64,000 nt of DNA, taken from an uncultured Hormoscilla sp. (GTDB taxonomy: Bacteria > Cyanobacteriota > Cyanobacteriia > Cyanobacteriales > Desertifilaceae). The position numbers and the translations under genes were made by a program. Below the pieces are notes generated by a model. It made no database searches and was not told the origin of the DNA. It saw only the letters and a program-made list of their open reading frames with translations. Positions 3,121 through 44,310 of the stretch are shown here, piece by piece. Location: assembly GCA_963921275.4 (NCBI GenBank), contig OZ001293.3:4576001-4640000 (forward strand). Direction: 5' to 3'. The first letter of the stretch is position 1. The number at the start of each line of letters is the position of its first letter.

Positions 3121-3236
3121 GGTAGTGGGTCACAAGTAGTGATTGCCTGAAACCCAGACTGTGGCCCCGGCTGGCCCCGGCAGGGACACAGGACCGCAGT
3201 CAAATCACTACGCTGACGCTCAGAATGACCACTACC
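3121..3236. mobile_element. Short MITE with GGTAGTGG termini (related copy at 5437-5514)
   Basis: Terminal IRs GGTAGTGGGTCA / TGACCACTACC; internal sequence is shared with 5437-5514. Confidence 0.6.
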
Positions 3237-3355
3237 TCCCCGCCAAATCTGTCTCCTACAGGCTAACGCTGCTGACGCTGCTGACGCTACAAGAGGCAGA
3301 GCCTCAAAGGTAGCATTCCGTGGCTCAGCCACGGAACCAATAAAGCCACGGAACC

Positions 3356-3747: not shown

Positions 3748-5401
3748 AGTCGGGGTCGAGCTAACTCTCACGAGCTAACCCTCCCATTCGGAACCGGACA
3801 TGCGACTTTCATCGCATCCGGCTACTGGGTAGATAGCCCTTTGTCATGGGTAGAATTACTCGGGATTACTCCCTTTGTTCCTCTCTTTATGTAATTTGGC
3901 CCCTTATGGTTAGTCTCAGACTAGATAAATGCCTAACTCCGGAAGGTTCGCGGGGGTTAACAGGACAAACCCATATAAACCGCTCTTTACTAACGTTGCC
4001 CTCGTTAATTAGGGACTTTACAAGTTTTACCCGGTTAGGTCTTTAGTCCAATATTAACTACCTAGGATTTCTCCTGGTCTAGAACATTTAAGGCTACTTT
4101 CACCCAAAGATTCTATCTATCACCAACCCACGTCAGCATATCCATAGGAGTTACCCCAGGCTTTAGCTTCTTGGGCTATCTCTCCCCTCATGGCTTGCGC
4201 TTTACATCTAACTTGTCCATATGAGGACAGCTCATGAGAGGTTACTTCGTTCCCTAATATCATTTCACGATACCTTTAGGCTCCTACTATACCTCAGTAA
4301 CTTTTCGAGTACGATGTTAGTCACGGGCTACGACTAACACTAGCTACTTTCCCTTTTGGGCCAGCGTAATAGCCTTATTCCGCTGGTTTAATATCATGAG
4401 GCTTACATAGATTTGTTTGTTCTAGCCTTGGGTATCTAACAAGCGCGGAGTCACTGGCTTAGGCTGCCAGCTATCCTACATTTAAATCCTCGCTTAGCAC
4501 CACGGCGATGTTACTCCGCAGCACCTCACGCGGTCACCCCCGTACTTGAGAGGAATTAGGGGTCGAGCTGGGAATCGCTCCCCAACCCTCCCGTTCGGAA
4601 CCGTGCATGCGACTTTCACCGCACACGGCTACTGGGTAGTTGGTCCTTGTCACTGGTAGGTAACTTCGGGATTACTCCCGTTGTCCCTCGTCTCATGAGA
4701 TTTGGCCCCTTGAGCTTATCCATCTCTGACAGGTTTCCCCCGAGCTGTAGGCATATTTAGGGCTACTTTTACCCAAGACTTCCAACTATCACCGACCGAC
4801 GTCTGCATATCCCAGGCGTTACTCCGGGCATTTGCTTCTTAGGCCATCTTTCCCACTCGCGGCTTGCGCTTCACATCTGACTGGTCCTTTAGGACAGCAC
4901 ACGAAGGGTTACTTCGTTCCCTGGTATCATTTCACGATGCCTTTAGGCCCCTACTTTTCCCCGGCAGTTATTTGGGTACAATGTTAGCCAATTCCCTAAT
5001 TAACACTAACTGCATTAACTTTTGTTCCAGCGCATTAAGCCTTATTTCGCTGGTTGGGTTTAACGAGGTTTACATAGGTTCGCTTGTTCTAGCCATGGAC
5101 ATCTTTCCTAGCGGAGTCACCGGCTTGGGCTGCCAGCTATCCTACATTTGAGTCCTCGCTTAGCACCACGACGATGTTATTTCGCAGCACCTCACGCGGT
5201 TACCCCTGTACCTGGGGAGGGGGAATTAAACCCCCATGATTACCAGAGTTACTAGTTTCCTAGGCCAGCGTTCCGTATATGACTACGTTAGGCTGGAACT
5301 CATCGCACGGGAATTTAACCCTCATGATAATCAGAGTTATCTGGCTAATGGAACCAGACCCGACTTTCACCATTACTGGCTTATGTCAGAACGAATCGCA
5401 C
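3748..5401 (-). mobile_element. ORF-less group II intron A1 (outer intron of twintron 1)
   Basis: 5' end GTGCGATTCGTT at 5401; domain V AGCCGGATGCGATGAAAGTCGCATGTCCGGTT and domain VI ending CGACCCCGACT at ~3748; ~900 nt without the inner intron; no RT ORF. Confidence 0.92.
4555..5308 (-). mobile_element. ORF-less group II intron B1 nested in domain I of A1
   Basis: Own 5' end GTGCGATGAG at 5308; own domain V AGCCGTGTGCGGTGAAAGTCGCATGCACGGTT and 3' end CGACCCCTAAT at 4555; removing it restores a continuous A1 domain I. Confidence 0.92.
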
Positions 5402-5436
5402 AACCCGATTATTATCCTAAGATATATACAAACAGG

Positions 5437-5514
5437 AGTAGCGGGTCACAAGTAGTGATTTTAGCGCCTGAAACCCAGGACCGCAGTCAAATCACTATCG
5501 GAATGACCACTACC
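5437..5514. mobile_element. Short MITE, relative of 3121-3236
   Basis: AGTAGCGGGTCACAAGTAGTGATT...GAATGACCACTACC matches the 3121-3236 element. Confidence 0.55.
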
Positions 5515-7036
5515 TTGGAATCCATGTTGCGGATATATAGCAGTCGGGGTCGAGCTAACTCTCACGAGCTAACCCTCCCATTCGGAACCGGACATGCGAC
5601 TTTCATCGCATCCGGCTACTGGGTAGATAGCCCTTTGTCATGGGTAGAATTACTCGGGATTACTCCCTTTGTTCCTCTCTTTATGTAATTTGGCCCCTTA
5701 TGGTTAGTCTCAGACTAGATAAATGCCTAACTCCGGAAGGTTCGCGGGGGTTAACAGGACAAACCCATATAAACCGCTCTTTACTAACGTTGCCCTCGTT
5801 AATTAGGGACTTTACAAGTTTTACCCGGTTAGGTCTTTAGTCCAATATTAACTACCTAGGATTTCTCCTGGTTTAGAACATTTAAGGCTACTTTCACCCA
5901 AAGATTCTATCTATCACCAACCCACGTCAGCATATCCATAGGAGTTACCCCAGGCTTTAGCTTCTTGGGCTATCTCTCCCCTCATGGCTTGCGCTTTACA
6001 TCTAACTTGTCCATATGAGGACAGCTCATGAGAGGTTACTTCGTTCCCTAATATCATTTCACGATACCTTTAGGCTCCTACTGTACCCCAGTAACTTTTC
6101 GAGTACGATGTTAGTCACGGGCTACGACTAACACTAGCTACTTTCCCTTTTGGGCCAGCGTAATAGCCTTATTCCGCTGGTTTAATATCATGAGGCTTAC
6201 ATAGATTTGTTTGTTCTAGCCTTGGGTATCTAACAAGCGCGGAGTCACCGGCTTAGGCTGCCAGCTATCCTACATTTAAATCCTCGCTTAGCACCACGGC
6301 GATGTTACTCCGCAGCACCTCACGCGGTCACCCCCGTACTTGAGGGGAAGTCGGGGTCGAGCTGTCCCTCGCGGGACAACCCTCCCTTTCGGAACCGTGC
6401 ATGCGACTTTCACCGCACACGGCTACTGGGTACTAGGCCCCTTTCACGGGTAGGATTACTAGGGATTACTCCCATTGTCCCTTACTACTTGCACGTCCGC
6501 CCCTTTCCTGGTTGGTGAGTGGAGCTGCCGGATAACCTTTAGTATCACCATTTAACACTCCGTTTTACCAGTTAAACATTCCTCAATCCTCAACTCGCTT
6601 TCGCTAACGCTGTAAATGGGCTTATGACATTTTAGAGCTACTTGTAGCAATAGTTTACTAGTATCACCGACCCGCGTCTGCGTATCCATAGGCATTACCG
6701 GCGTCTTCCGCATGCTCTTGTCCTGAAGGACTTTGGCGTCTTCCGCACACTCTTGTCCTGAAGGACTCGGTGTGCTCCAGACACCAAGGCATGCTCCAGA
6801 CACCGCCTAGGCATTAGCTTCTCGGGCCATCTCTCCCCTCATGGGCATGCGCTATGCGCTGCGCGCACGCTACGCGGACGCACATCTGACTTGTCCAAAT
6901 GAGGACAGCACCACGGGGGTTACTTCGTTCCTCTCGCTGAGGTTACTTCGTTCCCTGGTATCATTTCACGATGCCTTTAGGCCCCTACTTTTCCCCGGCA
7001 GTTATTTGGGTACAATGTTAGCCAATTCCCTAATTA

Positions 7037-8046
7037 ACCTAAGTTGCGACCTATTAAAAAAAATATGAATTACCCACTTAGACTTTACAGATATTTGGGA
7101 TATTTCGTAGCTTTTGATACAAAATTATATTTTTTTTGTGCTAGACGGCGGGTTGGCTGTTTATAGGTTATAATGTACTAAAATAATAGTTAATTGCTAG
7201 GGGATGTAGATGATGGAAGATATGATTACAACAATTTTTGTTCTTTGTGATGAGCTACTAAAAGCGTTAAATATAAAAGAAGATCCACAAGTAAAAATGA
7301 ACAATGCCGAAGTGATGACAGTCGGATTAGTTGCTGCATATTTTTTCGGAGGACACCACGATCGCTCTTGTCAATTTATGGTCGAACACAAGTATATAAA
7401 AAATCTGTTAAGTAAAAGTAGGTTCAATCGTCGATTACACAATATTGACGAACCAATTTGGATGTTTTTCTTCCAAGTTATAGCTCAAACATTTAAAGAG
7501 CTCAATCCGTCAAGAATATATTCTTGATAGTTTCCCGGTGCCAGTATGTGATAATATTAGGATTGATAGATGCCAAATTTATAACAAGGAAGAATATCGA
7601 GGGTATATTGCCAGTAAAAAACGTTATTTTTATGGATTAAGAGTTCATATGTTGGTAAACAAAAATGGAAAGCCAATAGAATTTTATCTAGATCCTGGTA
7701 GTTATAATGATGTTAAAGTTTTGCAATCTTTTGGCTTTGACTTACCATCAAATTCAATAGTTTATGGAGATAAAGCTTATAATGATTATCAATTAGAGGA
7801 TTTACTAAAAGAGTCGTCAAGTATAATGTTAAAACCTTTGCGAAAAAAGAACTCAAAAAGAAAAGAATATTCTTGTTTTGAATATATACAAAAAGTAACA
7901 AGAAAACAAGTTGAAACCTGTTTTAGTCGAATCACCAATTTGTTTCCCAAGTCAATTCATGCTGTTACATCTAAGGGATTAGAGTTGAAAATAATTCTCT
8001 TTATCATAGCTTTTTGTATCCAATTTTTATAGGTCGCAACTTGAGT
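7037..8046 (+). mobile_element. IS982-family insertion sequence
   Basis: IRs ACCTAAGTTGCGACCTAT / ATAGGTCGCAACTTGAGT with 6-bp TSD TAATTA; near-identical to 41900-42911. Confidence 0.9.
7210..8032 (+). pseudogene. IS982 transposase, frameshifted
   Basis: Split ORFs 7210-7527 and 7538-8032; AATCCGTCAAG here versus AATCCGGGTCAAG in the intact copy (2-nt loss). Confidence 0.9.
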
Positions 8047-8591
8047 TAATTAACACTAACTGCATTAACTTTTGTTCCAGCGCATTAAGCCTTATTTCGC
8101 TGGTTGGGTTTAACGAGGTTTACATAGGTTCGCTTGTTCTAGCCATGGACATCTTTCCTAGCAGAGTCACCGGCTTGGGCTGCCAGTTATCCTACATTTG
8201 AGTCCTCGCTTGGCACCACGATGATGTTACTTCGCAGCACCTCACGCGGTTACCCCTGTACCTGGGGAGGGGGAATTAAACCCCCATGATTACCAGAGTT
8301 ACTAGTTTCCTAGGCCAGCGTTCCGTATATGACTACGTTAGGCTGGAACTCATCGCACGGGAATTTAACCCTCATGATAATCAGAGTTATCTGGCTAATG
8401 GAACCAGACCCGACTTTCACCATTACTGGCTTATGTCAGAACGAATCGCACAGTTCTCATATTAGTGTGATATGCTGTAGGATATTGCGTCGGGAGGGTA
8501 ACTCACCCCTCGCATAAGTTACTCGCCTTACTCCCCCCCCCTCGCAATGACAAGTCGGCGATTATTCTGTACCACATTAATTTGAGAAACG

Positions 8592-17236: not shown

Positions 17237-17632
17237 TTCACCTCCTAATCATAACAGACAAACCAACGTTAATCATAGCTTCAATTTCCAACTGTTTAAT
17301 TTCTGATTCCCGGGATATTTTATTTTAACAGACCTGCGGCTGGAAAACTCCTTCCAGGAACAACAATTTCCTGGAATAATTTCTCTTCTAATTCTACATC
17401 TATGCTGCACCACCACAACAGGCCCAATGCCAAAAAGTGAGAAACTGCCAGTCCGATAGAGTTAACCCCTTTTCTTCTTATTCTCAACCCCGATCGCGTA
17501 GCGTGCGCGCAGCGCATTCGATGGAAATTACCTGAATTTTTGGTTGTTGCTCTAACAACTCACCCGCGGAGGCGCGATCCGGGAGGTTCTCCCGATACCG
17601 CCTTCGGCGCGCTCTTCGCTGTTAATACTGCT

Positions 17633-19642
17633 TTAACCTGGGCAAACACACTCGGCCAGTCTCCCAGTTTTGTTTGACGATCGGGGCCGCATCGTGGGAT
17701 ACCAAGGGCTATCCGATCGATCGAGGAACCAGCGCCAGTCAGGAGAAAAAGGTAACAGCACCCAGACAGGTTTTCCTAAAGCACCTGCTAGATGGGCAAC
17801 TGATGTATCTACAAAAATTACTAAGTCTAATTGTGAGATAACAGCAGCAGAAGAGGCGAAGTCATTCAACAGCTCTCTTAAATCCTGTATAGGTGCCCCA
17901 TCCAGGATATCTGTATGTTCCTTTTGCAAACTATAAAGAAAAATCCCTAATATCTGCGACAGTTCCAGAAACAGGGAAACCGGACAAGACCGCTTGCTAG
18001 CTGTAGGACTTTTAGCATTAACAGCCCACACAATGCCGACTTTTACTTCTCCTTCCGTTCGTAGCAAGCCACTGTACTTGACGGTGTCCTTCTCTTCAGC
18101 GTACAAATAGGGTATTCGAGCCGGAATAGTTTCTATAGTCGTACCCAGGATGCGGGGGAGACTCATCAGGGGGACTTGCACGTCAAATGCTGGTAATGGT
18201 TCGCCCATGACTACCACCTCCTGAACGCCAGAGACCGTAGTAAACAAGCGCCTGAGATCTGGATATGTTTCCACAATTACTTTACCAGCACCCAGCTGGG
18301 TTACTAAGGGCGCGTAACGGATGAATTGGATAGCGTCCCCGTGTCCCTGTTCTGTATGTAAAAGAATAGTTTTTCCTGCCAGTGGCGAACCGTCCCAAAG
18401 AGGTTTTCCCCCATCGCGCAGCGTGGCGCAGCCATAGCGTTGTTCCGGGGTCTGTCCCCGGAACAACCATGATGAATGGCGCCAGCGCCATTCATATTCT
18501 ACAAATCCTTGGCTCAAGTCCTGCAATAATAACAAGCACCTTCCCAGATTTAAGTGAGCCCTTACTGCATCTGGGTTTAAGGCAATAACATGACGGTAAT
18601 AGCCGATCGCCTCTTGTAATTTCAGTTTTTTTCGCAGGGCAAAACCCAGGTTGCTGTAGACTTCGGCAAGGTCTGGTTTCAGGGCGATCGCCTTTTGGTG
18701 GCATGCGATCGCCTCTGCAAACTTACGCTGCTCTTGCCAAGCGGTCCCCATCCTATTGTAAGCTTCTGGATAATCTGGTTTAATTGCCAGAGCCTGACGA
18801 TATTGTCCGATCGCCTCTGCTATTTTACCCTGCTTTTGCAGTATCACCCCCAGGTCGCAATTTGCGTCCAGATAGTTCGGCTTTAAGGCGATCGCCTGTT
18901 CATACTGCCTCGCCGCCTCTGCTAACTTTTCACATCTTTGATAGCATTTCCCCAACTGATTGTAAAATTTCGCTTCTGGTTTAATGGCAATGGCTTTTTC
19001 ATAATAGGCGATAGCCTCTTCTCTGCGGTCCTGCTCTTCCATAATTTTAGCCGCATTATAGTAAGCATCCGCACATTTGGGGTCAATGCCCCGAGCCCCC
19101 TTTTCGTAGCAGGCGATCTCTTGTTGGTAATGAGCGAGCGCCTCTTGATAACGCTTTCCTTGGCGACGCATCGCCGCCAATTTTTCAGGGGTCGCGCCAC
19201 TCGGGATCAGCGATCCCACTTGCTGGTCAGTCTCCTTCGCGTAGCGTGCGCGCAGCTCGATCGCCTCTAATCTTTTTCCCTGTTTTTCCAGGGCCAAAAC
19301 CAGGTTATCATAAGCATTAAGATAATCAGGCTTCACTGCGATCGCCTGTTTGTAGGCAGCGATCGCCTGTTCGATTTTTCCCTGTTCCCAGAAGCAAGCC
19401 CCCAGATTATTATAAGTCTCAGGCCAATCTGGCTTTATAGATATCACCTGTTGAAAATAGCCGATCGCCCGATCGTATTCCCTCGTCTGATAAGCAATAA
19501 TTCCTAGCATCTGCATAGCCTCTACCTTGTGAGGCTGCTGTTCTAGCATCGCCAAATAAACAGCCCTCGCTTCATTCAGACGTCCGGCTTGGTAGTGACT
19601 CAAAGCCTCTCTTAACCAATCGTTCCCTGCTTGCTGTACCAT
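17633..19642 (-). CDS. TPR-repeat protein with C-terminal GT9-like glycosyltransferase domain (extreme C-terminus frameshifted)
   Basis: Multiple TPRs, then YEWRW, WDGSPLAGKTILLHTEQGHGDAIQFIRY, DTSVAHLAGALGKP, DWRWFLDRSDSPWYPTMR. Confidence 0.88.
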   Translation of the reverse strand: MVQQAGNDWLREALSHYQAGRLNEARAVYLAMLEQQPHKVEAMQMLGIIAYQTREYDRAIGYFQQVISIKPDWPETYNNLGACFWEQGKIEQAIAAYKQAIAVKPDYLNAYDNLVLALEKQGKRLEAIELRARYAKETDQQVGSLIPSGATPEKLAAMRRQGKRYQEALAHYQQEIACYEKGARGIDPKCADAYYNAAKIMEEQDRREEAIAYYEKAIAIKPEAKFYNQLGKCYQRCEKLAEAARQYEQAIALKPNYLDANCDLGVILQKQGKIAEAIGQYRQALAIKPDYPEAYNRMGTAWQEQRKFAEAIACHQKAIALKPDLAEVYSNLGFALRKKLKLQEAIGYYRHVIALNPDAVRAHLNLGRCLLLLQDLSQGFVEYEWRWRHSSWLFRGQTPEQRYGCATLRDGGKPLWDGSPLAGKTILLHTEQGHGDAIQFIRYAPLVTQLGAGKVIVETYPDLRRLFTTVSGVQEVVVMGEPLPAFDVQVPLMSLPRILGTTIETIPARIPYLYAEEKDTVKYSGLLRTEGEVKVGIVWAVNAKSPTASKRSCPVSLFLELSQILGIFLYSLQKEHTDILDGAPIQDLRELLNDFASSAAVISQLDLVIFVDTSVAHLAGALGKPVWVLLPFSPDWRWFLDRSDSPWYPTMRPRSSNKTGRLAECVCPG

Positions 19643-19836: not shown

Positions 19837-22098
19837 TTAACCTGAGCAAACACACTCGGCCAGTCTCCCAGTTTTGTTTGACGATCGGGGCCGCATCGTG
19901 GGATACCAAGGGCTATCCGATCGATCTAGGAACCAGCGCCAGTTAGGAGAAAAAGGTAACAGCACCCAGACAGGTTTTCCTAAAGCACCTGCTAGATGGG
20001 CAACTGATGTATCTACAGAAATTACTAAGTCTAATTGTGAGATAACAGCAGCCGAAGAGGCGAAGTCATGCAACAGCTCTCTTAAATCTTGTATAGGTGC
20101 CCCATCCAGGATATCTGTATGTTCCTTTTGCAAACTATAAAGAGAAACTCCTGGTATCTGCGACAGTTCCAGAAATAGGGACACTGGACAAGACCGCTTG
20201 CTAGCTGTAAGACTTTTAGCATTAGCAGCCCACACAATGCCGACCTTTACCCTGTATTCGGGATGCGCCGTTCGTAGTACTCCACTGTACTTGACGGCGC
20301 CTTCCGCGTGCTCTTGTCCTTCAGGACAAAGGCCAGCTCCAGGCACCGCAGCTTCCTTCTCTTCAGCGTACAAATAGGGTATTCGAGCCGGAATGGTTTC
20401 TATAGTCGTACCCAGGATGCGGGGGAGACTCATCAGGGAAACTTGCAGGTCAAAGGCTGGTAATGGTTCGCCCTTGACTACCACCTGCTGAAGGCCAGAG
20501 ACCGTAGTAAACAAGCGTCTGAGAGTCGGATAGGTTTCCAGAATCACTTTACCAGCACCCCGCTGGGCTACTAAGGGCGCGTAACGGACGAACTGGATAG
20601 CGTCCCCGTGTCCCTGTTCTGTATGTAGGAAAATAGTTTTTCTTGCCAGTGGCGAACCATCCCAAGGGGGTTTTCCCAAGCGTTCTTCCGGGGTCCGTGC
20701 CCGGAAAAACTCTACTTTTAGGCGCCGGTCCCATTCAATTTATACAAATCCTTGTCGAAAATTCTGCAATAATAATAAGCACATTCCCAGACCCATGTGG
20801 GCCATTGCTGCATCTGGCTTTAAAACAATAGCATGGCGGTAATAGCCGATCGCCTCTTGTAATTTCAGTTGTTCTCGCAGGGCAAAACCCAGGTTGCTGT
20901 AGACTTCGGCAAGGTCTGGTTTCAGGGCGATCGCCTTTTGGTAGCATGCGATCGCCTCTGCTAACTTACCCTGATTTTGCCAAGCGGTCCCCATCCTATT
21001 GTAAGCTTCTGGATAATCTGGTTTAATTGCCAGAGCCTGGCAATATTGTCTGATCGCTTCTGCTATTTTACGCTGCTTTTGCAGTATCACCCCCAGGTTG
21101 CAAATTGCTTCTAGATAGTTCGGCTTTAAGGCGATCGCCCGTTCATACTGTCTCGCCGCCTCTGCTAAGTTCCCACATCTTTGATAGTATGCACCCAACC
21201 TATTGTACAATTTCGCCTCTGGTTTAATGGCAATGGCTTTTTTACAATAGGCGATCGCCTCTTCTCTGCGGTCCTGCTCTTCCATAATTCTGGCCGCCTT
21301 ATAGTAAGCATCCGCATAGTTGGGGTCAATGCTGATAGCCTTTTCGTAGCAGGCGAGCGCTTGTTCCTTATGGCCCAAGGAGTGCAAAACTACGCCCAAA
21401 TTATTGTGCAGGCCCATATCCTGGGGATTGAGAGCGATCGCCTCCCGGTATACCGATACTGCTTCTGCTAGCTTCCCGGTATTTTGGAGACATACCCCCA
21501 ACAAATTCATGGTTTTGCTATTTCCCGGATGGGCCAATAGCGCTTGGCGACAGAGGGCGATCGCCTTGTCTTTTTCTCTCTTTTGATACCAACTCATCGC
21601 CTGTTGGTAATGAGCGCTCGCCTCTTGATAACGCTTTTCCTCCTTCAGCATCGCCGCCGATTTTTCATGGGCCGCTCCACTCCGAATCAGCGGTACCACT
21701 TGCTGGTGCGTCTCGCGCATATCTAATCTTTTTCCCTGTTTTTCCAGGGCCAAAACCAGGTTATCATAAGCATCAAGATAATCAGGATTCACTGCGATCG
21801 CCTGTTTGTAAGCAGCGATCGCCTGTTCGATTTTTCCCTGTTTTCAGAAGCAAGCCCCCAGATTATTATAAGTCTCATGCCAATTTGGCTTTATAGACAT
21901 CACCTGTTGGAAATAGTTGATTGCTCGATCGTATTCCCTCGTCCGATAAGCAATAATTCCCAGCATCTGCATAGCCTCTACCTGGTGAGGCTGCTGTTTG
22001 AGCATCGCCAAATAAACAGCCCTCGCTTCATTCAGACGTCCGGCTTTGTAGTGACCCAAAGCCTTTCTTAACCAATCATTATCCGCTTGCTGTACCAT
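19837..22098 (-). pseudogene. TPR-glycosyltransferase paralog broken into three ORFs
   Basis: TGG>TGA stop at 21844 and a frameshift near 20740; high DNA identity to 17633-19642. Confidence 0.88.
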
Positions 22099-23036: not shown

Positions 23037-23467
23037 AAAAACAGCGCAGCCTGCTTTAGTCAAAAATGAGCCTAAGCTAGCAAGGTTAAGACAGAACCAG
23101 AGAAAGATATATTACCATGACCGGGTGCTACCTCAGAATACTCCAGCTAACAATTTCAGGAAACGGTAACACTATTAGTAGTAACGACCAACACTGGCTG
23201 TTCTTTGTCAGAAAGCAGTACAAATTTCGATAACCGACCTTTAGCAACGGGGGCCCAGAAAGGCAATAGCGGCGGGGCGGCAGGCATAAGCGGTGCCCTG
23301 TTTGTCTTTAAATGGACGGTCAGAATGACCAACTTTCCGGATAGCATAAAAAAGTAATTTTATGTATCAGAGACGAAAAAACATAAAGATCCGTAAAGTA
23401 TAAGTAGGTAATCCATATTTCTTAAGATTTTTTAAATAGGTCGCAACTTGAGTTATGATAGACCTAG

Positions 23468-23528
23468 GTGCGACTCGTTCCGGCGTAAGTTAGAAATATG
23501 ACGATAGTCGGGCTAGTATTACACCAGC
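23468..23528 (+). other. Group II intron 5'-end stub upstream of the DUF4347-LRR gene, preceded by a solo IS982 end
   Basis: GTGCGACTCGTTCCGGCGTAAGTTAGAAATATGACGATAGTCGGGCTAG resembles the intron 5' ends at 5401 and 37942; ATAGGTCGCAACTTGAGT lies at ~23436-23453. Confidence 0.6.
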
Positions 23529-23588: not shown

Positions 23589-26500
23589 ATGGTAGTAGTG
23601 GATGCCTCCCTAGAAAACTACCAGCAGCTTATAGACGGCATCCGGCCTGGGGCCAAATCTTTTTTCTTAGACCTTCGGTCCGATGGCATCGAACAGATCG
23701 GCGAACTTCTCCGACAGCATCAAGAAACAGAGGTTCTGCACCTACTCTCCCATGGCAGCCCTGGCTGTCTGTATCTGGGAAACTCCCAACTGAGTTTAGA
23801 TACTCTAGGAGATTACGCTTCTACCCTGCAGAAGTGGAAAGTAAAACAACTCCTACTCTACGGCTGTAACGTCGCCGCCGGAGATGCAGGAGAGGAGTTG
23901 ATGACTAAGCTACAGGCCCTGACCGGGGCATCCCTCGCCGCCTCTACTACCCGGACAGGGGCAGCAGCCCGGGGCGGAAATTGGAGGTTGGAGTGGCGAA
24001 CTCCGGGGATGAAAACTCCCTTAGCATTGTCCGCAGAAGCTCAGATGGCCTATGGGGGCATATTGATCTCCCAGCAGGAGTATCAGGCCTTAAGGGCTCT
24101 CTATCAAAGCACCAATGGGGCTTCTTGGAGTAACAATACAGGCTGGCAAGACTGGAATTTCAACAGCCCAACTCCCCCCAATGATTCTGTTGTTAATGGT
24201 TGGCATGGAGTGACGGTAGCTAGCTCCCGGGTGATTAACCTCGAGCTGAACTTCAACCAACTGACTGGCAGCATCCCGACGGAGTTAGGGAATCTTTCCA
24301 ATTTGGAGTCTCTCTTGCTGTCCTTCAACCAACTGACTGGCAGCATCCCGACGGAGTTAGGGAATCTTTCCAATTTGCAGTTTCTCCAGCTGTTTTCCAA
24401 CCAACTGACTGGCAGCATCCCGACGGAGTTAGGGAATCTTTCCAATTTGGAGAATCTCCGGCTGTACTCCAACCAACTGACTGGCAGCATCCCGACGGAG
24501 TTAGGGAATCTTTCCAATTTGCAGTTTCTCCAGCTGTTTTCCAACCAACTGACTGGCAGCATCCCGACGGAGTTAGGGAATCTTTCCAATTTGGTATCTC
24601 TCGTGCTGTTCTCCAACCAACTGACTGGCAGCATCCCGACGGAGTTAGGGAATCTTTCCAATTTGGTATCTCTCGTGCTGTTCTCCAACCAACTGACTGG
24701 CAGCATCCCGACGGAGTTAGGGAATCTTTCCAATTTTATTTGGCTCCGGCTGGACTCCAACGAACTGACTGGCAGCATCCCGACGGAGTTAGGGAATCTT
24801 TCCAATTTGCGATCTCTCCAGCTGTTCTTTAACCAACTGACTGGCAGCATTTCCCAAGAGGTTCTAGATTTGAGTGCTGAGAAGCGATTGGAAAACCCCC
24901 CTTATGTTTTAACCGAGATTCCCTACGTCCAACTCTTGCTAGGTAATAACCTCAACATAAACATTAGCGCAGATTTCCGCGACATCAATAACAACATTAG
25001 TAGCTACGGCGCTAATGGTTTGCCAAACGGTTTAACCATTAACTCCACTACTGGGGTGATCAGCGGCACTCCTACTACTGAGGGCAGTTTTACCGTGACG
25101 GTAACAGCAACGGATAGGGCGGGAGGCCGGGGAGAAGATGAATTTAATATTACGGTATCGATTCCTCTCAATGCAAGTGATTACGACGCCCTTCGGGCTC
25201 TCTATAACAGTACTTCTGGGAATAATTGGAGGAAGAGGACAGGCTGGGATGTCAGCAGCCCAACTCCTCCCTCTGCTAGTGTTGTTAATAGCTGGCATGG
25301 GGTGACGGTAGTGGGCGATCGGGTGACGAAACTCTCCCTGTTCAACAACTCCCTGAGCGGTACGCTCCCCTCGGAGTTAGGCTCCCTCAGCAATTTGCAA
25401 GTCCTCTCCCTGAACTTCAGCTCCCTGAGCGGTACGCTCCCCTCGGAGTTAGGCTCCCTCAGCAATTTGCAAGAGCTCTGGCTGGACAGAAACTCCCTGA
25501 GCGGTACGCTCCCCTCTGAGTTAGGCTCCCTCAGCAATTTGCGAAAGCTCTACCTGCACAGAAACTCCCTGAGCGGTACGCTCCCCTCTGAGTTAGGCTC
25601 CCTCAGCAATTTGCAAGAGCTCTCCCTGCACAGAAACTCCCTGAGCGGTACGCTCCCCTCAACCTTAGGCTCCCTCAGCAATTTGCAAGAGCTCTCCCTG
25701 CACAGAAACTCCCTGAGCGGTACGCTCCCCTCAACCTTAGGCTCCCTCAGCAATTTGCAAAACCTCTACCTGGACAGAAACTCCCTGAGCGGTACGCTCC
25801 CCTCTGAGTTAGGCTCCCTCAGCAATTTGCAAGACCTCTACCTGTTCAACAACTCCCTGAGCGGTACGCTCCCCTCGGAGTTAGGCTCTTTCAGCAATTT
25901 GCAAGAGCTCTACCTGAACAACAACGACTTTCGCGGTACGATCCCCGACAGTATCAACGCTTTGTCAGCATCCAAACGATTGGAAAACCCTCCCTATGTG
26001 GAAATTCAAATTCCCGACGTCAATGCCTTAAGTGGTGAGAAATTCAACTTCAAGGTGGGCGGGAACTTCGGCGACCTCAACAACAACATTAGTAGCTACG
26101 GCGCTAATGGTTTGCCAGACGGTTTAACCATTAACTCCACTACTGGGGTGATCAGCGGCATTCCTACTATTCCTACTATTGATGGCAGTTTTACCGTGAC
26201 GGTAACAGCAACGGATGGGGTGGGATACCGGGGAGAGGATGAATTTAATATTACAGTATCGCGTCCCACTAGCTTCAACCTTTCTGATAGTTTCGCTCTC
26301 AATGGCAACTTTACCAATTTGTACATCGGTGACTTTAATGGGGACAATCATGATGATATCCTCCGTCAAGAAAAGGGCAGTTGGTCCAACGAGGATGCCT
26401 ATCGGACTGCTGAAGTCCTCTTATCCCAAGGTAACGGCAACTTTACCCGCACCACCCTTCCTGATAGTAGATCTCTCAATGGCAACTTTATCAATTTGTA

Positions 26501-27707
26501 CATCGGTGACTTTAATGGGGACAATCATGATGATATCCTCCGTCAAGAAAAGGGCAGTTGGTCCAAGGACGATGCCGTAAGGACTGCTGACGTCCTCTTA
26601 TCCCAAGGTAACGGCAACTTTACCCGCACCACCCTTCCTGATAGTTTCGCTCTCAATGGCAACTTTACCAATTTGTATGTCGGTGACTTTAATGGAGACG
26701 AAAAAAGCGATATCCTCCGTCAAGAAAAGGGCAGTTGGTCCAAGGACGATGCCGTAAGGACTGCTGACGTCCTCTTATCCCAAGGTAACGGCAACTTTAC
26801 CCGCACCACCCTTCCTGATAGTTTCGCTCTCAATGGCAACTTTACCAATTTGTATGTCGGTGACTTTAATGGAGACGGGAAAAGCGATATCCTCCGTCAA
26901 GAAAAGGGCGATTGGGATAACGATGCCATTCGGACTGCTGAAGTCCTCTTATCCCAAGGTAACGGCAACTTTACCCGCACCACCCTTCCTGATAGTTTCG
27001 AGCTCAAGGGCGACTTGACCAAGTTGTATATAGAAGATTTGGATGGTGATGACCGAGATGAGATTCTGGTTCAAAAAAAATTGACCCAAGAGGGTCTGTC
27101 CCGCCTCCTGAAGGTATTGTCCTCAAATGATGGGCGCAATTTTACCGAATCTCTGCTCCCTTCTGCGCTTCAGTTTTCCAGTCAAAGCGGGCAACTGTAT
27201 ATTGCCGATTACTCCGGCAGTGGGCAAAACAATGATGTTCTGGTTCAGCGTTCTGGAAATAACCAAGCGCTGCTAGGCAGCATTACCCTGGGGAGCAATG
27301 ACTACCTTCAAGGGGGAACAGGAAACGATTCCCTCAATGGGGGTAACGGAAACGACTGGATTCGCGGATACGGGGGCGACGATACCCTTTTAGGGGGCAG
27401 CGATAACGATACTCTCTATGGCGACGAGGGAGAGGATATTCTCAATGAGGGTAAGGGGCACGACATGCTTTACGGCAATTCCGGTAGTGATACTTTTGTC
27501 TTGGCCCGGGGCATGGGCGGGGATACCATCCAGGACTTTTCAGATGGTACGGACTTTATCCGGTTAGAAGGAGGTTTGAGTTTTGCTGATTTAGGAATTG
27601 ATTCTCAGAACGATTCGACTTCTATTAAGGTCAGTGCTTCTGGGGAACTGTTGGGGATTTTGTCGGGGGTTGATTCTAGTCTTATTGGTGCTTCTGATTT
27701 TGTTTAG
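23589..27707 (+). CDS. Large secreted/surface protein: DUF4347 - LRR - Ig(He_PIG) - LRR - Ig - FG-GAP/VCBS repeats - RTX Ca-binding C-terminus
   Basis: LHLLSHGSPG/LLLYGCNVAAG (DUF4347); 24-aa LxxLxLxxNxLTGSIPxELGxL repeats; GLPNGLTINSTTGVISGTPT; GDFNGD repeats; GGxGND nonapeptides. Confidence 0.92.
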   Translation: MVVVDASLENYQQLIDGIRPGAKSFFLDLRSDGIEQIGELLRQHQETEVLHLLSHGSPGCLYLGNSQLSLDTLGDYASTLQKWKVKQLLLYGCNVAAGDAGEELMTKLQALTGASLAASTTRTGAAARGGNWRLEWRTPGMKTPLALSAEAQMAYGGILISQQEYQALRALYQSTNGASWSNNTGWQDWNFNSPTPPNDSVVNGWHGVTVASSRVINLELNFNQLTGSIPTELGNLSNLESLLLSFNQLTGSIPTELGNLSNLQFLQLFSNQLTGSIPTELGNLSNLENLRLYSNQLTGSIPTELGNLSNLQFLQLFSNQLTGSIPTELGNLSNLVSLVLFSNQLTGSIPTELGNLSNLVSLVLFSNQLTGSIPTELGNLSNFIWLRLDSNELTGSIPTELGNLSNLRSLQLFFNQLTGSISQEVLDLSAEKRLENPPYVLTEIPYVQLLLGNNLNINISADFRDINNNISSYGANGLPNGLTINSTTGVISGTPTTEGSFTVTVTATDRAGGRGEDEFNITVSIPLNASDYDALRALYNSTSGNNWRKRTGWDVSSPTPPSASVVNSWHGVTVVGDRVTKLSLFNNSLSGTLPSELGSLSNLQVLSLNFSSLSGTLPSELGSLSNLQELWLDRNSLSGTLPSELGSLSNLRKLYLHRNSLSGTLPSELGSLSNLQELSLHRNSLSGTLPSTLGSLSNLQELSLHRNSLSGTLPSTLGSLSNLQNLYLDRNSLSGTLPSELGSLSNLQDLYLFNNSLSGTLPSELGSFSNLQELYLNNNDFRGTIPDSINALSASKRLENPPYVEIQIPDVNALSGEKFNFKVGGNFGDLNNNISSYGANGLPDGLTINSTTGVISGIPTIPTIDGSFTVTVTATDGVGYRGEDEFNITVSRPTSFNLSDSFALNGNFTNLYIGDFNGDNHDDILRQEKGSWSNEDAYRTAEVLLSQGNGNFTRTTLPDSRSLNGNFINLYIGDFNGDNHDDILRQEKGSWSKDDAVRTADVLLSQGNGNFTRTTLPDSFALNGNFTNLYVGDFNGDEKSDILRQEKGSWSKDDAVRTADVLLSQGNGNFTRTTLPDSFALNGNFTNLYVGDFNGDGKSDILRQEKGDWDNDAIRTAEVLLSQGNGNFTRTTLPDSFELKGDLTKLYIEDLDGDDRDEILVQKKLTQEGLSRLLKVLSSNDGRNFTESLLPSALQFSSQSGQLYIADYSGSGQNNDVLVQRSGNNQALLGSITLGSNDYLQGGTGNDSLNGGNGNDWIRGYGGDDTLLGGSDNDTLYGDEGEDILNEGKGHDMLYGNSGSDTFVLARGMGGDTIQDFSDGTDFIRLEGGLSFADLGIDSQNDSTSIKVSASGELLGILSGVDSSLIGASDFV
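24230..24852 (+). repeat. 72-bp LRR tandem repeat block 1 (9 units)
   Basis: Near-invariant AACCAACTGACTGGCAGCATCCCGACGGAGTTAGGGAATCTTTCCAATTTG plus a 21-nt variable segment. Confidence 0.95.
25322..25950 (+). repeat. 72-bp LRR tandem repeat block 2 (9 units)
   Basis: Framework AACTCCCTGAGCGGTACGCTCCCCTC-GAGTTAGGCTCCCTCAGCAATTTG. Confidence 0.95.
26280..27005 (+). repeat. Four 177-bp (59-aa) FG-GAP-like repeats
   Basis: Repeated DSFALNGNFTNLY.GDFNGD...DILRQEKG.W...RTA.VLLSQGNGNFTRTTLP. Confidence 0.9.
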
Positions 27708-27977: not shown

Positions 27978-30900
27978 ATGAAGCATAATACCAATGCCAA
28001 CACCATGGTAGTAGTGGATGCTTCCCTAGAAAACTACCAGCAGCTTATAGACGGCATCCGGCCTGGGGCCAAATCTTTCCTCTTAGACCTTCGGTCCGAT
28101 GGCATCAAACAGATCGGCGAACTTCTCCGACAGCATAAAGAAACAGAGGTTCTGCACCTACTCTCCCATGGCAGCCCTGGCTGTCTGTATCTGGGAAACT
28201 CCCAACTGAGTTTGGATGGGGTCGAGCCGGGAATCGCTTCCCGACCCTCCCTTTCGGAACCGGACTTGCGATTTTCACCGCATCCGGCTACTGGGTACTA
28301 GGCCCTTTTCATAGGTAGACTTAATAGGAATTACTTCCGTTAGCCCTTGCCGCCTGTCTTTTCTTCCCTTTCCTGGTTTAGCGAGTGGTTGTTCTGATAA
28401 CCGTTAGTATCACCATTTTCAAGTCAGTTTTACCAGTTATCCATACCTTATCCTCCACTTGCGTTTCGGATTAGTTCCGTGGCTTTTTAGGATTACTCAT
28501 TCCAGCAGCTTCCTAGTATCACCGACCCACGTCAGCGCTGGCTACCCAGCATCATCTACATTACTGTAGATGTTATCCCAGGAATTACCCCGGGCATTCG
28601 CTTCTTGGGCCATCCCTCCCCCCGTGGCTTGCGCTTAACATCTAACTTGTCCTGATGGACAGCACACGAGAGGTTACTTCGTTCCCTAACAACATTTCGC
28701 GATACCTTTAGGTCCACACTATACCCCGGGAGCTATTTGAGTACTATATTAGCCAGAGTCTAAAACTAATACTAGCTACCATTTCCTTTTTAGGCCAGCG
28801 CATATAGCCTTATTTCGCTGGTTCCTTATAACGAGGCTTGCACATGTTTGCCTGCTCTAACCTTGGATATCTTTCCTAGCGGCGTCACCGGCTTAGGCTG
28901 CCAGTTATCCTACATTTGAGTCCTCGCTTAGCACCACGATGATGTCGCTTCGTAGCACCGAGGACCGGTGTCACCCCCGTACCTGGGGGGAGGGGAATTT
29001 AACCCCCATGCGGTCAGAGTTCCCGGCTAATGAAACCGGGCTAGCGTTCCGTGTTTGACCACGTTAGGCTAGAACGAATCGCACAGATCCTCTAGGAGAT
29101 TACGCCTCTACCCTACAGAAGTGGAAGGTAAAACAACTCCTACTCTACGGCTGTAACGTCGCCGCCGGAGATGCAGGAGAGGAGTTGATGACTAAGCTAC
29201 AGGCCCTAACCGGGGCATCCCTCGCCGCCTCTACTACCCGGACAGGGGCAGCAGCCCGGGGCGGAAATTGGAAGTTGGAGTGGCGAACTCCGGGGATGAA
29301 AACTCCCTTAGCATTGTCCGCAGAAGCTCAGATGGCCTATGGGGGCATATTGATCTCCCAGCAGGAGTATCAGGCCTTAAGGGCTCTATACCAAAGCACC
29401 AATGGGGCTTCTTGGAGTAACAATACAGGCTGGCGAGACTGGAATTTCAACAGCCCAACTCCCCCCAATGATTCTGTTGTTAATGGTTGGTATGGAGTGA
29501 CGGTAGCTAACTCCCAGGTGACTCGCCTCCGGCTGTTCTCCAACCAACTGACTGGCAGCATCCCGACGGAGTTAGGGAATCTTTCCAAATTGGCGGCGCT
29601 CTTGCTGAACTCCAACCAACTGACTGGCAGCATCCCGACGGAGTTAGGGAATCTTTCCAATTTGCAGTTCCTCGAGCTGGACAGAAACCAACTGACTGGC
29701 AGCATCCCGACGGAGTTAGGGAATCTTTCTACTTTGCGACGTCTCTGGCTGGACTCCAACCAACTGACTGGCAGCATCCCGACGGAGTTAGGGAATCTTT
29801 CCAATTTGACAACTCTCCTTCTGAACTCCAACCAACTGACTGGCAGCATCCCGACGGAGTTAGGGAATCTTTCTAAATTGGCGGCGCTCTTGCTGAACTC
29901 CAACCAACTGACTGGCAGCATCCCGACGGAGTTAGGGAATTTTTCCAATTTGCAGTTCCTCGAGCTGGACAGAAACCAACTGACTGGCAGCATCCCGACG
30001 GAGTTAGGGAATCTTTCCAATTTGGTGCAGCTCTTTCTGTACTCCAACCAACTGACTGGCAGCATCCCGACGGAGTTAGGGAATCTTTCCAATTTGGTGC
30101 TGCTCTGGCTGTACTCCAACCAACTGACTGGCAGCATCCCGACGGAGTTAGGGAATCTTTCCAATTTGCAGTTTCTCTACCTGTCCGGCAACCAACTGAC
30201 TGGCAGCATCCCGACTGAATTAGGGAATCTTTCCAATTTGAAGAATCTCCGGCTGGGCTCCAACCAACTGACTGGCAGCATCCCGACGGAGTTAGGGAAT
30301 CTTTCTAATTTGCGACTTCTCTTGCTGTACTCCAACCAACTGACTGGCAGCATCCCGACGGAGTTAGAGAATCTTTCCTATTTGTGGGCGCTCTACCTGA
30401 ACAACAACCTCCTGACTGGCAGCATCCCCCAAGAGGTTCTAGATTTGAGGGGCTTAGTCTTAAAGCGATTGGAAAACCCCCCTTATGTTTTAACCGAGAT
30501 TTCGACGTCCAACTCTTGCTAGGTAATAATCTCAACATAGACATTAGCGCAAATTTCGGCGACATCAATAACAACATCAACAACTACACAGCTACCGGTT
30601 TACCAGGGGGCGTAACCATCAACAGTCGGGGAGTTATCAGCGGTACTCCTACTACCGCAGACACCTTTACCGTGACGGTAACAGCAACGGATAGGGCGGG
30701 ATACCGGGGAGAGGATGAATTTAATATTACGGTATTGACTCGTAATCCTCTCAATGCTAATGATTATGCAGCCCTTCTGACTCTCTATAACAGTACTTCT
30801 GGGGAGAATTGGGCGAACAGGACAGGCTGGGATGTCAGCAGCCGGACTCCCCTCTCTGCCGATGTTGTTAATGGCTGGCATGGGGTGACGGTAGTGGGAA

Positions 30901-37941: not shown

Positions 37942-38056
37942 GTGCGATTCGTTCTGACGTAAGCTAGAAATAGCGAAAGTCGGGCCTGGTTTCATTTGCC
38001 AGGTAACTTTGGCATCATGGGGGTTAAATTACCCTCGCCCAGGTATGGGGTTGACA
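37942..38056 (+). mobile_element. Truncated group II intron (5' ~115 nt only) fused to an hsdM fragment
   Basis: GTGCGATTCGTTCTGACGTAAGCTAGAAATAGCGAAAGTCGGG...CATGGGGGTTAAATTACCC aligns with the A1/A2 5' end. Confidence 0.85.
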
Positions 38057-39466
38057 ACGGTACATGGTTTGGATGGACTGATTCAGATCGGAAATACTTT
38101 TTACGATCGCCGGGAAGACTTAATCGGTGGGTGCGATTATGTGATGTCGAACCCTCCGTTTAATGTGGATGCGGTGATTCCCGATCGCATCAAGGATGAC
38201 CCGCGCCTATTTACCCAGAAAAAGATCCCCGGCATTGCCCAAAAAACCGGGGCGGTTAGCAATGCCAACTATCTCTGGATTCAATATTATTACAGCTATC
38301 TGAACGAAAAAGGACGGGCGGGCTTTGTGATGGCCAGTTCCGCTTCTGATGCGGGACATGGTGAAAAGGCAATTCGCCAGGAGATTATTGCTACGGGGGC
38401 GGTGGATGCGATCGTCTCCATTGGCACGAACTTTTTCTATACCCGATCGCTACCTTGTACTCTGTGGTTTTTTGATAAGGGAAAGCCCCAAGACCGCCTG
38501 GATAAAGTGTTGATGATTGATGGGCGGAATATTTACCGGGTCATCAGTCGCAAGCTGCGGGATTTTAGCCCGGAACAGTTGCAAAACCTGACGGCGATCG
38601 CCTGGCTGTATCGGGGGGAAACTGAGAAATATTTAGGCTTGGTGGGATCCTATTTGGAGAAGCTACAGGCTAGCATTGCCCCATTGCCAGCAGCAGTGCA
38701 AGCCATGCAGGAGTCGGTAATGTGGTTGGGGGAAGGGTTGCAGGAGTTCGCGGAGGAGATGGCCCAGCGTCAGAGTCGGGTACAAATTAGTTTATTTGAG
38801 GATGTCCCGGAGGTGGAGATTGACGCCCAGTTGCAAGGGTTGCACTCATTGCTGCAAGAGTTCGCCACGGTGCAAAGTCGATGTCAGACGGACGGGGAAA
38901 CTCTGATGGCTGAGTTGGCAAGGATCTCCATGCCAAGGAAGAAGACTAACGGGGCAATGATTGCCAATGTCCGCAAGTTTGAGCCGTTGATTTCCCGGTT
39001 GAAGGCGTACCGTAAGGAAATCGATGAACTGCACAAGTTACTCACTCGCGGTTTGGAAGTGGTCACCAAGAAGTTAAAGGCAAGTAAGCTGAAAAATTGG
39101 TACAGTCGAGAAATGGGCGATCGGGCCAAACGGCTAGATGGGGAACATGAGGAGGTACGGCATGGGATGAAAACAATCCGCTACTGGTACGACCAGGCCC
39201 ACTGGTTACAGTCGCGGTTCCCAGAGGCGATGTTTGTGGATGTACCGGGATTGTGTAAGGTGGTAACTCGGGGGGAGATTGCCGAACAGGACAGCAGTTT
39301 AACTCCAGGGCGTTATGTGGGGGTTGCACCGGTGATGGATGAGGAGGATGAAGAGGCGTTTGAGGCCCGGATGAAAGCCATTCATCAGGAGTTGGCAGAG
39401 TTGAATGAGGCGGCGGTGGAGTTGGCAGGGGCAATTCAAAGTAATTTTGAGGAGTTAGTGGGATGA
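38057..39466 (+). pseudogene. hsdM: Type I R-M methyltransferase subunit, 5'-truncated
   Basis: VHGLDG..NTFY..MSNPPFN, ANYLWIQ, SLTPGRYVG; the N-terminal half with the SAM-binding DPxxGxG motif is absent. Confidence 0.88.
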
Positions 39467-39633
39467 TATACCCTCGTTCCCAGAGGGTGCATCTACCCTC
39501 GTTCCCAGACTCCGGCTGGGAACGAATTACGCGGAGGCAGAGCCTCCGGTTTCTGCAACAGGAGGCAGAGCTGAGAGCAGTCATTGGCAGGTAGAACCTG
39601 CCAACGAGGTAAAATTTTACATAGTTTAGTTGA

Positions 39634-39809
39634 CAATAGTCCGGACATTTTTTAGACCCCAGAACCACGACATAGCAAGGGTTACGGCAAAAGGCGCATC
39701 ATTTTTTTCAAGGTCAGGCCCAGGGCTAACTTGTAAAAAATGGCTCGCTCTCCCAAAGGCTGACGCTGTAAGGCTTACGGCGTCGTTCCCCAAAGTGTCC
39801 GGAGTATTG
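39634..39809. mobile_element. MITE with 5-bp TSD
   Basis: IRs CAATAGTCCGGACA / TGTCCGGAGTATTG; GTTGA repeated at 39629-39633 and 39810-39814. Confidence 0.75.
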
Positions 39810-39923
39810 GTTGAATTATGCACACCTACTTATGGATGAAAGCTATTCATCAGAAGTTGGTAAAGTTGGATGAGGCGGCGGTGGAATTTGCAAGGACGAA
39901 TATAAGTAATTTCGCGGAGTGCT

Positions 39924-41153
39924 ATGAATTGGGAAACTTCTACATTAGGCTTACTTGGAGATTTTACAAATGGAGTTAATTTTAAGAGTGAGCAAATGGG
40001 ACGAGGTTTACGTATAATTAATGTAAAAGACATTTTTAATAGTGGCATATTTATTGATTTTGAATCCTTAGAGTTGGTTGATTTAGAAAATAGTTCTCGT
40101 ATATCAAATTACTTTGTTAAACAAGGAGATATATTTTTTGTGCGTTCATCTGTTAAACGGGAAGGCATTGGTCTTGTTACAATGGCTCGCCGTTCGGATG
40201 AGCGAACTGTATATTGTGGCTTTGTAATTAGATTTCGACCAAAAAGCAATAATTTAGATTCTTTATTTTTAACCTATCTATTGAGAGCGCCAGAATATAG
40301 AAAAAAGTTGATGAATCTATCGGGTGGTGCTGCAATAACGAACATTTCTCAAACTAATTTAAAAGGATTAGAGGTTCCTTTACCTCCCCTGCCAACGCAA
40401 AAACGAATCGCGGATATCCTCTCAAAATATGACGACTTCATCGACAACAACAACCGCCGCATCGCATTACTAGAGGAGTCTGTACATCTGCTGTATCGAG
40501 AGTGGTTCGTGAGCCTGCGGTTTCCGGGTCACGAGTCCGTGCGCGTTGTGGATGGAGTCCCGGAAGGGTGGGAACAGACAACTATAGGCAATGCTTTTTC
40601 AATTATGGGAGGTGGAACACCATCAAAAAAAGTGTCGGAGTATTGGAGAGACGGAACAATTAATTGGTACTCGCCCACAGATTTAACAAAAACAGGAACA
40701 ATGTTTATGGAAAGGTCATCAATTCAAATAAATGAAACAGGTCTAGCTAAAAGTTCTGCATGTTTATTGCCGCCTTTTTCAGTTATGATGACCAGTCGTG
40801 CGACAATTGGCGTTATTGCAATAAATACAACTAAATGTTGTACGAATCAAGGATTTATAAATTGTATTCCGAACCATCGCATTTCTTTGTATTTTTTATA
40901 TTGCTATCTACATGCTAATGTTGAAAAGACTTTAAGTGTCGCTACTGGTGGTGCTACCTTTAAGGAAATATCAAAAAAAGTATTTAATAAATTTTCAATT
41001 TTGATTCCAGAATTACAAATGAAAAAAAAGTTTGAAGAAAAAGCTAGCATTTTGGGGAATCAAATTCTTAATCTGCAATGTCAAAACCAAAAGCTCAAAG
41101 AAGCCCGCGACTCGCTGTTACCACGCCTAATGAATGGGAGCCTAGAAGTATGA
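39924..41153 (+). CDS. hsdS: Type I R-M specificity subunit (copy 1, intact)
   Basis: TRD1 - PLPPLPTQKRIADILSKYDD..NNRRIALLEE..LYREWF..GVPEGW - TRD2 - ARDSLLPRLMNG. Confidence 0.93.
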   Translation: MNWETSTLGLLGDFTNGVNFKSEQMGRGLRIINVKDIFNSGIFIDFESLELVDLENSSRISNYFVKQGDIFFVRSSVKREGIGLVTMARRSDERTVYCGFVIRFRPKSNNLDSLFLTYLLRAPEYRKKLMNLSGGAAITNISQTNLKGLEVPLPPLPTQKRIADILSKYDDFIDNNNRRIALLEESVHLLYREWFVSLRFPGHESVRVVDGVPEGWEQTTIGNAFSIMGGGTPSKKVSEYWRDGTINWYSPTDLTKTGTMFMERSSIQINETGLAKSSACLLPPFSVMMTSRATIGVIAINTTKCCTNQGFINCIPNHRISLYFLYCYLHANVEKTLSVATGGATFKEISKKVFNKFSILIPELQMKKKFEEKASILGNQILNLQCQNQKLKEARDSLLPRLMNGSLEV

Positions 41154-44292: not shown

Positions 44293-44310
44293 TTTGGAGA
44301 AATTGGTGGG

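Follow-up and report, generated by a model that had tools for sequence, protein, structure and literature searches.

Two adjacent twintrons of ORF-less group II introns in an uncultured Hormoscilla sp.

Can a group II intron that encodes no protein of its own use another such intron as its homing site? The question is raised by a short interval in a 64,000-nt stretch of DNA from an uncultured Hormoscilla sp. (assembly GCA_963921275.4, contig OZ001293.3, positions 4,576,001 to 4,640,000 of the forward strand). The whole stretch was analyzed and is called the window here, and all coordinates without a contig name refer to it. On the minus strand of 3749–8451 there are two neighboring twintrons, in which an outer group II intron (A1 or A2) holds an inner one (B1 or B2), and all four lack an open reading frame (ORF) for a reverse transcriptase (RT). 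We hold with good confidence that the interval consists of two ORF-less A introns of probable group IIB type, each invaded by the related ORF-less intron B, presumably via retrohoming.

Anatomy of the nested introns

The group II domain V/VI model RF00029 gave four minus-strand matches in the interval (6350–6427, 5543–5620, 4568–4633 and 3749–3826). The scores were between 45.2 and 47.9 bits, compared with a gathering score of 40, and the E-values were between 2.5e-6 and 1.2e-5 for the whole 64-kb window. One further match, the fifth in the window (28216–28292), belonged to another intron, named C. The AGC triad of domain V (DV) and the bulged A of domain VI (DVI) were seen in the RF00029 alignments of the four nested introns. 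Intron 5′ ends with GTGCGA were found on the minus strand at 8451, 8358, 5401 and 5308. The 3′ ends of A1, A2 and B1 read ...CUCG-A-CCCCGAC, with the bulged DVI A 7–8 nt from the end.

Read 5′ to 3′ along the minus strand, the interval starts with the 5′ segment of the outer intron A1 (nt 1–93; 8359–8451). This segment begins GTGCGATTCG, is identical to the 5′ segment of A2, and aligns to nt 1–93 of uninterrupted relatives. It is followed by the inner intron B1 (6350–8358; 2009 nt), with a GTGCGATGAG 5′ end and its DV/DVI at 6350–6427 (47.9 bits), and then by the 3′ segment of A1 (nt 94–900; 5543–6349), which has its DV/DVI at 5543–5620. After a non-coding spacer of 141 nt (5402–5542), the arrangement is repeated on the same strand, with the 5′ segment of A2 (nt 1–93; 5309–5401), the insertion-free inner intron B2 (4556–5308; 753 nt) and the 3′ segment of A2 (nt 94–900; 3749–4555; DV/DVI 3749–3826). 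The spacer carries a short dispersed repeat (5438–5515), which recurs at 3122–3237, about 500 nt downstream of A2, and also in Hormoscilla L010.

Excising 8358–6350 and 5308–4556 gave two introns of 900 nt each, identical at 895 of 900 positions (99.4%). Both inner introns follow ...GAGGGTTAAATTCCC, that is, outer-intron nucleotide 93. The restored A aligned without gaps across the junction with the uninterrupted intron C, with Hormoscilla L020 and L028, and with others. Intron C (28216–29084, minus strand) served as the related, ORF-less empty-site reference, with GGGUUAAAUUCCC unoccupied; it was 92% identical to Hormoscilla L016. In each unit the inner intron is complete and lies on the same strand as the outer one, and its removal leaves a continuous outer intron. 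Because the restored A1 and A2 align uninterrupted to intron C and to other ORF-less introns, we consider both units real twintrons.

A preliminary description of this DNA had proposed two tandem twintrons of ORF-less introns, an insertion at the same nucleotide of the outer domain I, and no RT ORF in any of the four introns. The four domain V/VI matches and the restored outer introns bear out the first proposal, and the position after nt 93 in both copies the second. The third also held: the longest sense-strand ORF in the interval had 83 amino acids, in introns of 753–993 nt without inserted elements. None of eight small ORFs of the interval matched Pfam, the only interval match being the transposase of an insertion sequence (IS). 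Nor was an RT domain found among the 24 larger ORFs scanned across the whole window.

With respect to the genomic setting, joining the three flanking stretches yielded no ORF that crossed an exon junction. The twintron locus is intergenic, as bacterial twintrons are described to be in most cases (PMC4424553). An RT/maturase/HNH ORF was present inside an intron of Hormoscilla GM7CHS1pb (L028:428-1798), and ORF-less cyanobacterial introns are reported to be spliced or mobilized by the intron-encoded proteins (IEPs) of other introns (PMC2882425, PMC4649490). It is reasonable to expect that A and B would likewise depend on a maturase supplied in trans. The 5′ ends of A and C read GUGCGAUUCG, the IIB2 consensus given in PMC4649490, and B begins GUGCGAUGAG.

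Base pairing between inner and outer introns

The target of B is a conserved hairpin located ~75–100 nt into domain I (hairpin 1), with a 5-bp stem (GRGGG/CCCYY) and a 7-nt loop (UUWAAUU). The stem paired 5/5 in all 19 family sequences (19/19), and its second pair alternated between G-C and A-U, with G-U intermediates; the exchanging part of the 3′ strand lay outside the search pattern. Folded singly, the hairpin-1 regions did not outperform shuffled sequences. Hairpin 1 is immediately followed by a second hairpin, in which CCCCC...GGGGG gives way to CUCC...GGAG in more distant relatives (by inspection). B is inserted after the third base of the hairpin-1 3′ strand, in the stem and not in the loop. 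The +1 base is U at the invaded A site and C in intron C, B1 and B2. Hairpin 1 was also considered as an alpha or beta tertiary partner, a candidate that was dropped when no covarying partner was found.

The exon-binding sites (EBS) of B match this hairpin as intron-binding sites (IBS). EBS1 of B, GGGAAUU (minus strand; 7024–7030 in B1 and 4990–4996 in B2), pairs 7/7 with the seven outer-intron bases directly before the insertion. EBS2, AACCC (minus strand; 8106–8110 in B1 and 5056–5060 in B2), pairs 5/5 with GGGUU at −13 to −9. IBS2 starts at −13, the position at which the IBS2 of A1 and that of A2 start as well. The complete target consists of IBS2 GGGUU, a spacer A and IBS1 AAUUCCC, and is found on the minus strand at 8359–8371 in A1 and 5309–5321 in A2. 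IBS2 and IBS1 together span almost all of hairpin 1.

A comparison with nine related introns identifies the two stretches as true EBSs. In an alignment of domain I, the stretch homologous to GGGAAUU was hypervariable. Tested for complementarity to the 5′ exon of its own intron, it scored 6/6 in nine introns out of 11 and 5/6 in the remaining two. Non-cognate pairs of loop and exon had a mean of 4.06 matches, with 10 of 106 reaching six. The stretch homologous to AACCC behaved in the same manner, with an IBS2 of 5–6 nt, a gap of 1–2 nt and then IBS1 (L010, L001 and L019, by inspection). This was confirmed for A2, whose 5′ exon matched its EBS1 at 6/6 positions (one G-U) and its EBS2 at 5/5, indicating a cognate site; the last bases of the spacer, UAAUA-AU-CGGGUU, match EBS2 and EBS1 of A. 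The RNAalifold consensus fold placed EBS1 in the loop of a conserved hairpin.

The hairpin 1 of B itself (GGGUUUAAUUCCC; minus strand, 5233–5221 in B2 and 8283–8271 in B1) is fully complementary to B’s own EBS2 and EBS1. The hairpin could serve as a self-target, or compete for the EBS sites within the molecule, yet it was uninvaded in both B copies.

From these pairings we infer a route that follows standard group II retrohoming. The RNA of B would be bound to an RT/maturase encoded elsewhere in the genome, and its EBS2 (AACCC) and EBS1 (GGGAAUU) would base-pair with the DNA of the A domain-I hairpin (GGGUU-A-AAUUCCC). B would reverse-splice after the last C of AAUUCCC and would then be copied into DNA. 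In the transcript, B would be excised first, restoring the fold of A, and A would splice afterwards, in a sequential twintron splicing. This order would be obligatory, because B splits the 3′ strand of the hairpin-1 stem. Both trans-mobilized ORF-less introns and intron-targeted homing have a described precedent (PMC2882425).

Decay, target choice and number of insertions

The two inner introns are in different states. B1, with its 2009 nt, holds a 1009-bp IS and small repeats, and shrinks to 993 nt once the IS and one copy of a repeat are subtracted. The IS (7038–8046, plus strand) carries a DDE_Tnp_1_3 / DDE_Tnp_1 transposase split into the ORFs 7210–7527 and 7538–8032 (Pfam E 7e-14). It sits directly 5′ of the B1 EBS1, in the EBS1 loop, and has TTAATTA on both flanks; its exact ends and the length of the target duplication are ambiguous in these AT-rich flanks. 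Short dispersed repeats in 6945–6700 were common to 17495–17517, 19238–19256, 20296–20347, and Hormoscilla L029 and L022. B1 and B2 were 99% identical in the first 400 nt and 63% in the last 300 nt. Within domain I there were five differences in the first ~310 nt and none in the next ~100. Near 6955, at the B1 breakpoint, the conserved motif GGAACGAAGTAACC is duplicated. Judged by its sequence, B1 is a chimera with a foreign 3′ half. Because of the IS in the EBS1 loop, the small repeats and this 3′ half, twintron 1 (A1/B1) is probably dead and no longer able to splice.

Twintron 2 (A2/B2) looks structurally intact, save for the unusual or ambiguous 3′ end of B2. This end is at 4556 (or 4555) and not at 4568, where the Rfam match ends: cmscan misaligned the DVI of B2, and a homologous DVI is visible in the alignment with B1. 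The 3′ end reads ...CUCGACCCCUAA, and the splice site is uncertain by 1 nt.

The window has three copies of the same IS (DDE_Tnp_1_3). The copy at 41900–42910 has an intact ORF of 274 amino acids (41914–42738), the copy in B1 (7038–8046) is frameshifted and 99.3% identical to the intact one, and the copy at ~23329–23453 is a diverged end remnant beside a 5′ intron fragment. Between the IS and Hormoscilla GUM202 L001:1-257 the identity is 93%. Together with the 92% identity of intron C to L016 and a gene content typical of cyanobacteria, this points to a filamentous cyanobacterium near Hormoscilla, a placement drawn from mobile elements.

How well does retrohoming of B into A, and a preference of B for introns, agree with the remaining data? 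The preliminary description had located the inner EBS1 at 4991–4996 and EBS2 at 5056–5060. These coordinates were right, the sites pairing fully and being equivalent to the EBS stretches of relatives. The placement of EBS1 in a loop, which it had named as the point to be checked by folding, was not refuted either, since the consensus fold with relatives puts it there. The alifold consensus of 12 domain-I sequences gave conserved helices. The Rfam D1–D4 models, proposed for this check, had no match at E ≤ 1 across the whole window and so gave no names to the domain-I sub-elements.

This lack of D1–D4 matches weighs against our reading, as do six further observations. First, the B2 EBS1 region (51 nt) folded alone gave a different helix, no better than shuffles (z −0.18), so the assignment of the EBS1 loop is based on homology and flank covariation, not on thermodynamics. 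Second, EBS3/IBS3 was not identifiable, the covariation search with the first 3′-exon base giving no information, as G can pair with C or with U. Third, the 5′ exon of A1 matched EBS2 at 5/5 positions but EBS1 only at 3/6, and A1 is thus not at a clean homing site. Fourth, B2 ends in CCCCUAA (or AAU if shifted by 1 nt), as opposed to GAC in A1, A2 and B1. Fifth, only two of the five perfect 13-nt target sites in the window were occupied, the empty ones being the hairpins of intron C, B1 and B2. Sixth, a genome scan with the hairpin motif gave at least 29 matches (the source genome not being among those listed), and all 16 intron-borne sites in other genomes among the matches listed were uninterrupted. 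These 16 were from Hormoscilla spp., Oscillatoriales USR001, Floridaenema and three uncultured-bacterium contigs, and the other 13 listed were chance occurrences in unrelated taxa. No B-type copy was found among the genome-scan matches listed, and B may simply be absent from the genomes with uninterrupted motif sites. When the 5′ segment of A2 plus B2 was compared with a collection of plasmids (blastn, distant mode), only short DV-type matches (≤9% coverage, seven records) and no twintron were obtained.

With less than an even chance, B could be a hyperparasite, that is, a non-autonomous intron whose EBSs would have been retuned to the hairpin CAUGRGGGUUWAAUUCCC, common to an ORF-less intron family of Hormoscilla-like filamentous cyanobacteria and beyond. 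Both visible B copies (2/2) are in introns, inside A, and introns may be the main target of B.

A second, independent case of nesting was found in Hormoscilla GUM202 L011, which makes intron-into-intron insertion recurrent in this intron family. There, a 924-nt antisense ORF-less intron (L011:3746-4669, minus strand) sits in the EBS1 loop of the intron L011:3432-5229 (plus strand). The outer intron was identical at 873 of 873 positions to the empty copy L016. EBS2 (5 bp) and, after a gap of 2 nt, EBS1 (5/6) of the inner intron match the antisense flank, in an alignment read by eye and with no scripted count.

The strongest rival to intron specialization, to which we give appreciable weight but less than an even chance, is that B is an ordinary ORF-less intron. 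Its homing site would be elsewhere, or would be any GGGUUNAAUUCCC, and the intron hairpin would be a neutral spot in which insertions persist. The three empty sites in the window agree with this explanation, as do the chance occurrences of the 18-nt motif in unrelated genomes (13 of the 29 matches listed) and the relatives of B that have other EBS sequences and sit at non-intron sites. It is countered by the location of every visible B copy in an intron. The hairpin is also structurally constrained and family-wide, so that in an intron-rich genome no other source of this sequence is nearly as common.

The second rival, which we consider possible yet doubtful, concerns the number of events: a single homing could have produced an ancestral twintron, later copied in one piece, as DNA or through mobility of the unspliced twintron. 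The same-nucleotide insertion would then be one observation counted twice, silent on site preference. The similarly low divergence between A1 and A2 (5/900) and between the domain I regions of B1 and B2 would fit such a history, and the two units are only 141 nt apart. Their flanks, however, are not duplicated. The ends of the spacer are unlike the outside sequences, and the sole similarity is the dispersed repeat at 3122–3237. The divergent 3′ halves of B1 and B2 would need a further replacement anyway, and an outer ribozyme with a split domain-I stem would not be expected to reverse-splice as a unit.

An explanation with no insertion at all, in which recombination between related introns mimics nesting, is scarcely credible: recombination does happen here, as seen in the B1 chimera with its duplicated motif and in truncated 5′ intron fragments at 37942–38061 and ~23468–23520, but the removal of B restores A to the nucleotide in both copies, the ends of B are complete, 12 bp of EBS/IBS complementarity lie exactly at the junction, and the junction-spanning alignment to uninterrupted relatives, run as a test, held.

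Other traces of mobile elements were found elsewhere in the window. Intron C sits antisense in a DUF4347/LRR gene (28005–28217 and 29086–29400, plus strand), a paralogue of the ORF 23589–27707, and splits it at about codon 71 (tblastn: amino acids 1–71, 95.8%; amino acids 71–175, 98.1%). The gene is disrupted, because an antisense intron is unspliceable from its mRNA. The truncated 5′ intron fragment at 37942–38061 (plus strand, ~115 nt) has its hairpin-1 site mutated to AAATTACCC and overlaps the start of the ORF 38009–39466, which has an N6_Mtase domain and is hsdM-like. The fragment at ~23468–23520 (plus strand, ~50 nt) is located just upstream of a DUF4347 gene and adjoins the IS remnant. 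Both fragments were probably left behind when intron copies recombined with each other. Mobile elements also appear to have disrupted a type I restriction-modification cluster (38009–48710), which comprises the hsdM-like ORF, an hsdS (39924–41153), the IS at 41900–42910, an hsdS fragment (44665–45654) and an hsdR (45651–48710).

Known twintrons and significance of the locus

To our knowledge, bacterial twintrons are few, and those described have at least one RT-encoding partner. Nested introns of Methanosarcina acetivorans were reportedly the subject of work by Dai and Zimmerly in 2003. No description of the present locus was seen among the papers listed in literature searches on cyanobacterial twintrons and ORF-less introns, and a search on Hormoscilla introns gave no paper at all.

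The Thermosynechococcus elongatus system is similar, with ORF-less TeI3/F3 introns found inside TeI4/F1 introns (Mohr, Ghanem & Lambowitz 2010, PMC2882425). As described there, it is also cyanobacterial and intergenic, with an ORF-less inner intron that homed site-specifically into a related group II intron, at a conserved position, an inner intron dependent on the IEPs of other introns, and an IS insertion in an intron (PMC2882425). The outer intron of T. elongatus, however, is reported to encode an RT, and its domain-IV insertion site, located between the first and the second ATG of the ORF, leaves the ribozyme core untouched (PMC2882425). In Hormoscilla both partners are ORF-less and a domain-I stem is split; mobility was demonstrated in T. 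elongatus (PMC2882425) and is proposed here.

Trichodesmium erythraeum Tery_4732 also has an inner intron in domain I of a IIB-type host, whose 5′ consensus is given as GUGCGAUUC, as in A and C, with the same expected logic of sequential splicing (Pfreundt & Hess 2015, PMC4649490). According to this source, both introns have IEP ORFs, and the twintron is a single one, in a conserved protein gene, with splicing shown in vivo (PMC4649490). In the Hormoscilla locus, by contrast, the introns have no ORFs, the twintrons are two, side by side, and a host gene is lacking.

In M. acetivorans, both ORF-less and RT-encoding introns are described as having homed repeatedly into specific sites of other group II introns, in the absence of coding exons; recombination among copies and introns that act as a perpetual homing site are described as well (PMC4424553, PMC2882425). 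That system differs from ours in being archaeal, in having the intron ORF regions as targets and in reaching five levels of nesting (PMC4424553, PMC2882425); here there is one level, in domain I.

Two organellar systems also have parallels. The plant-mitochondrial “zombie” twintrons have an ORF-less intron in paralogous introns, with fossilized inner introns (Zumkeller et al. 2020, PMC7049729). The hypermobile intron of that report invades itself, whereas neither B copy is self-invaded, despite the perfect match of the B hairpin to its own EBS1 and EBS2. A further difference is that the splicing of the outer plant-mitochondrial intron is described as independent of the inner one (PMC7049729). 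In the Euglena plastid twintrons, as here, ORF-less introns are inserted in ORF-less introns, and the inner one must splice first, as B would have to; those introns are highly reduced and lie in protein genes (PMC4424553).

Intron-directed twintron formation is already known in Thermosynechococcus, Methanosarcina and Trichodesmium. What sets the Hormoscilla locus apart is a combination: both partners are non-autonomous, the organism is a bacterium, and the target site is such that a conserved domain-I stem is split. It leaves the present picture of group II intron biology unchanged. The locus illustrates how such elements decay, by IS insertion, invasion by small repeats and recombination between paralogues, and how related introns are retargeted through changes in EBS1 and EBS2. 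Twintron 2 would offer a small natural system in which to test obligatory sequential splicing and the trans-mobilization of ORF-less introns.

If B is indeed a hyperparasite of introns, every related intron, B included, would be a potential renewable landing pad. Together with the L011 case, this would make the homing of one purely non-autonomous intron into another a recurrent event in this clade, with the host ribozyme disabled until its parasite splices.

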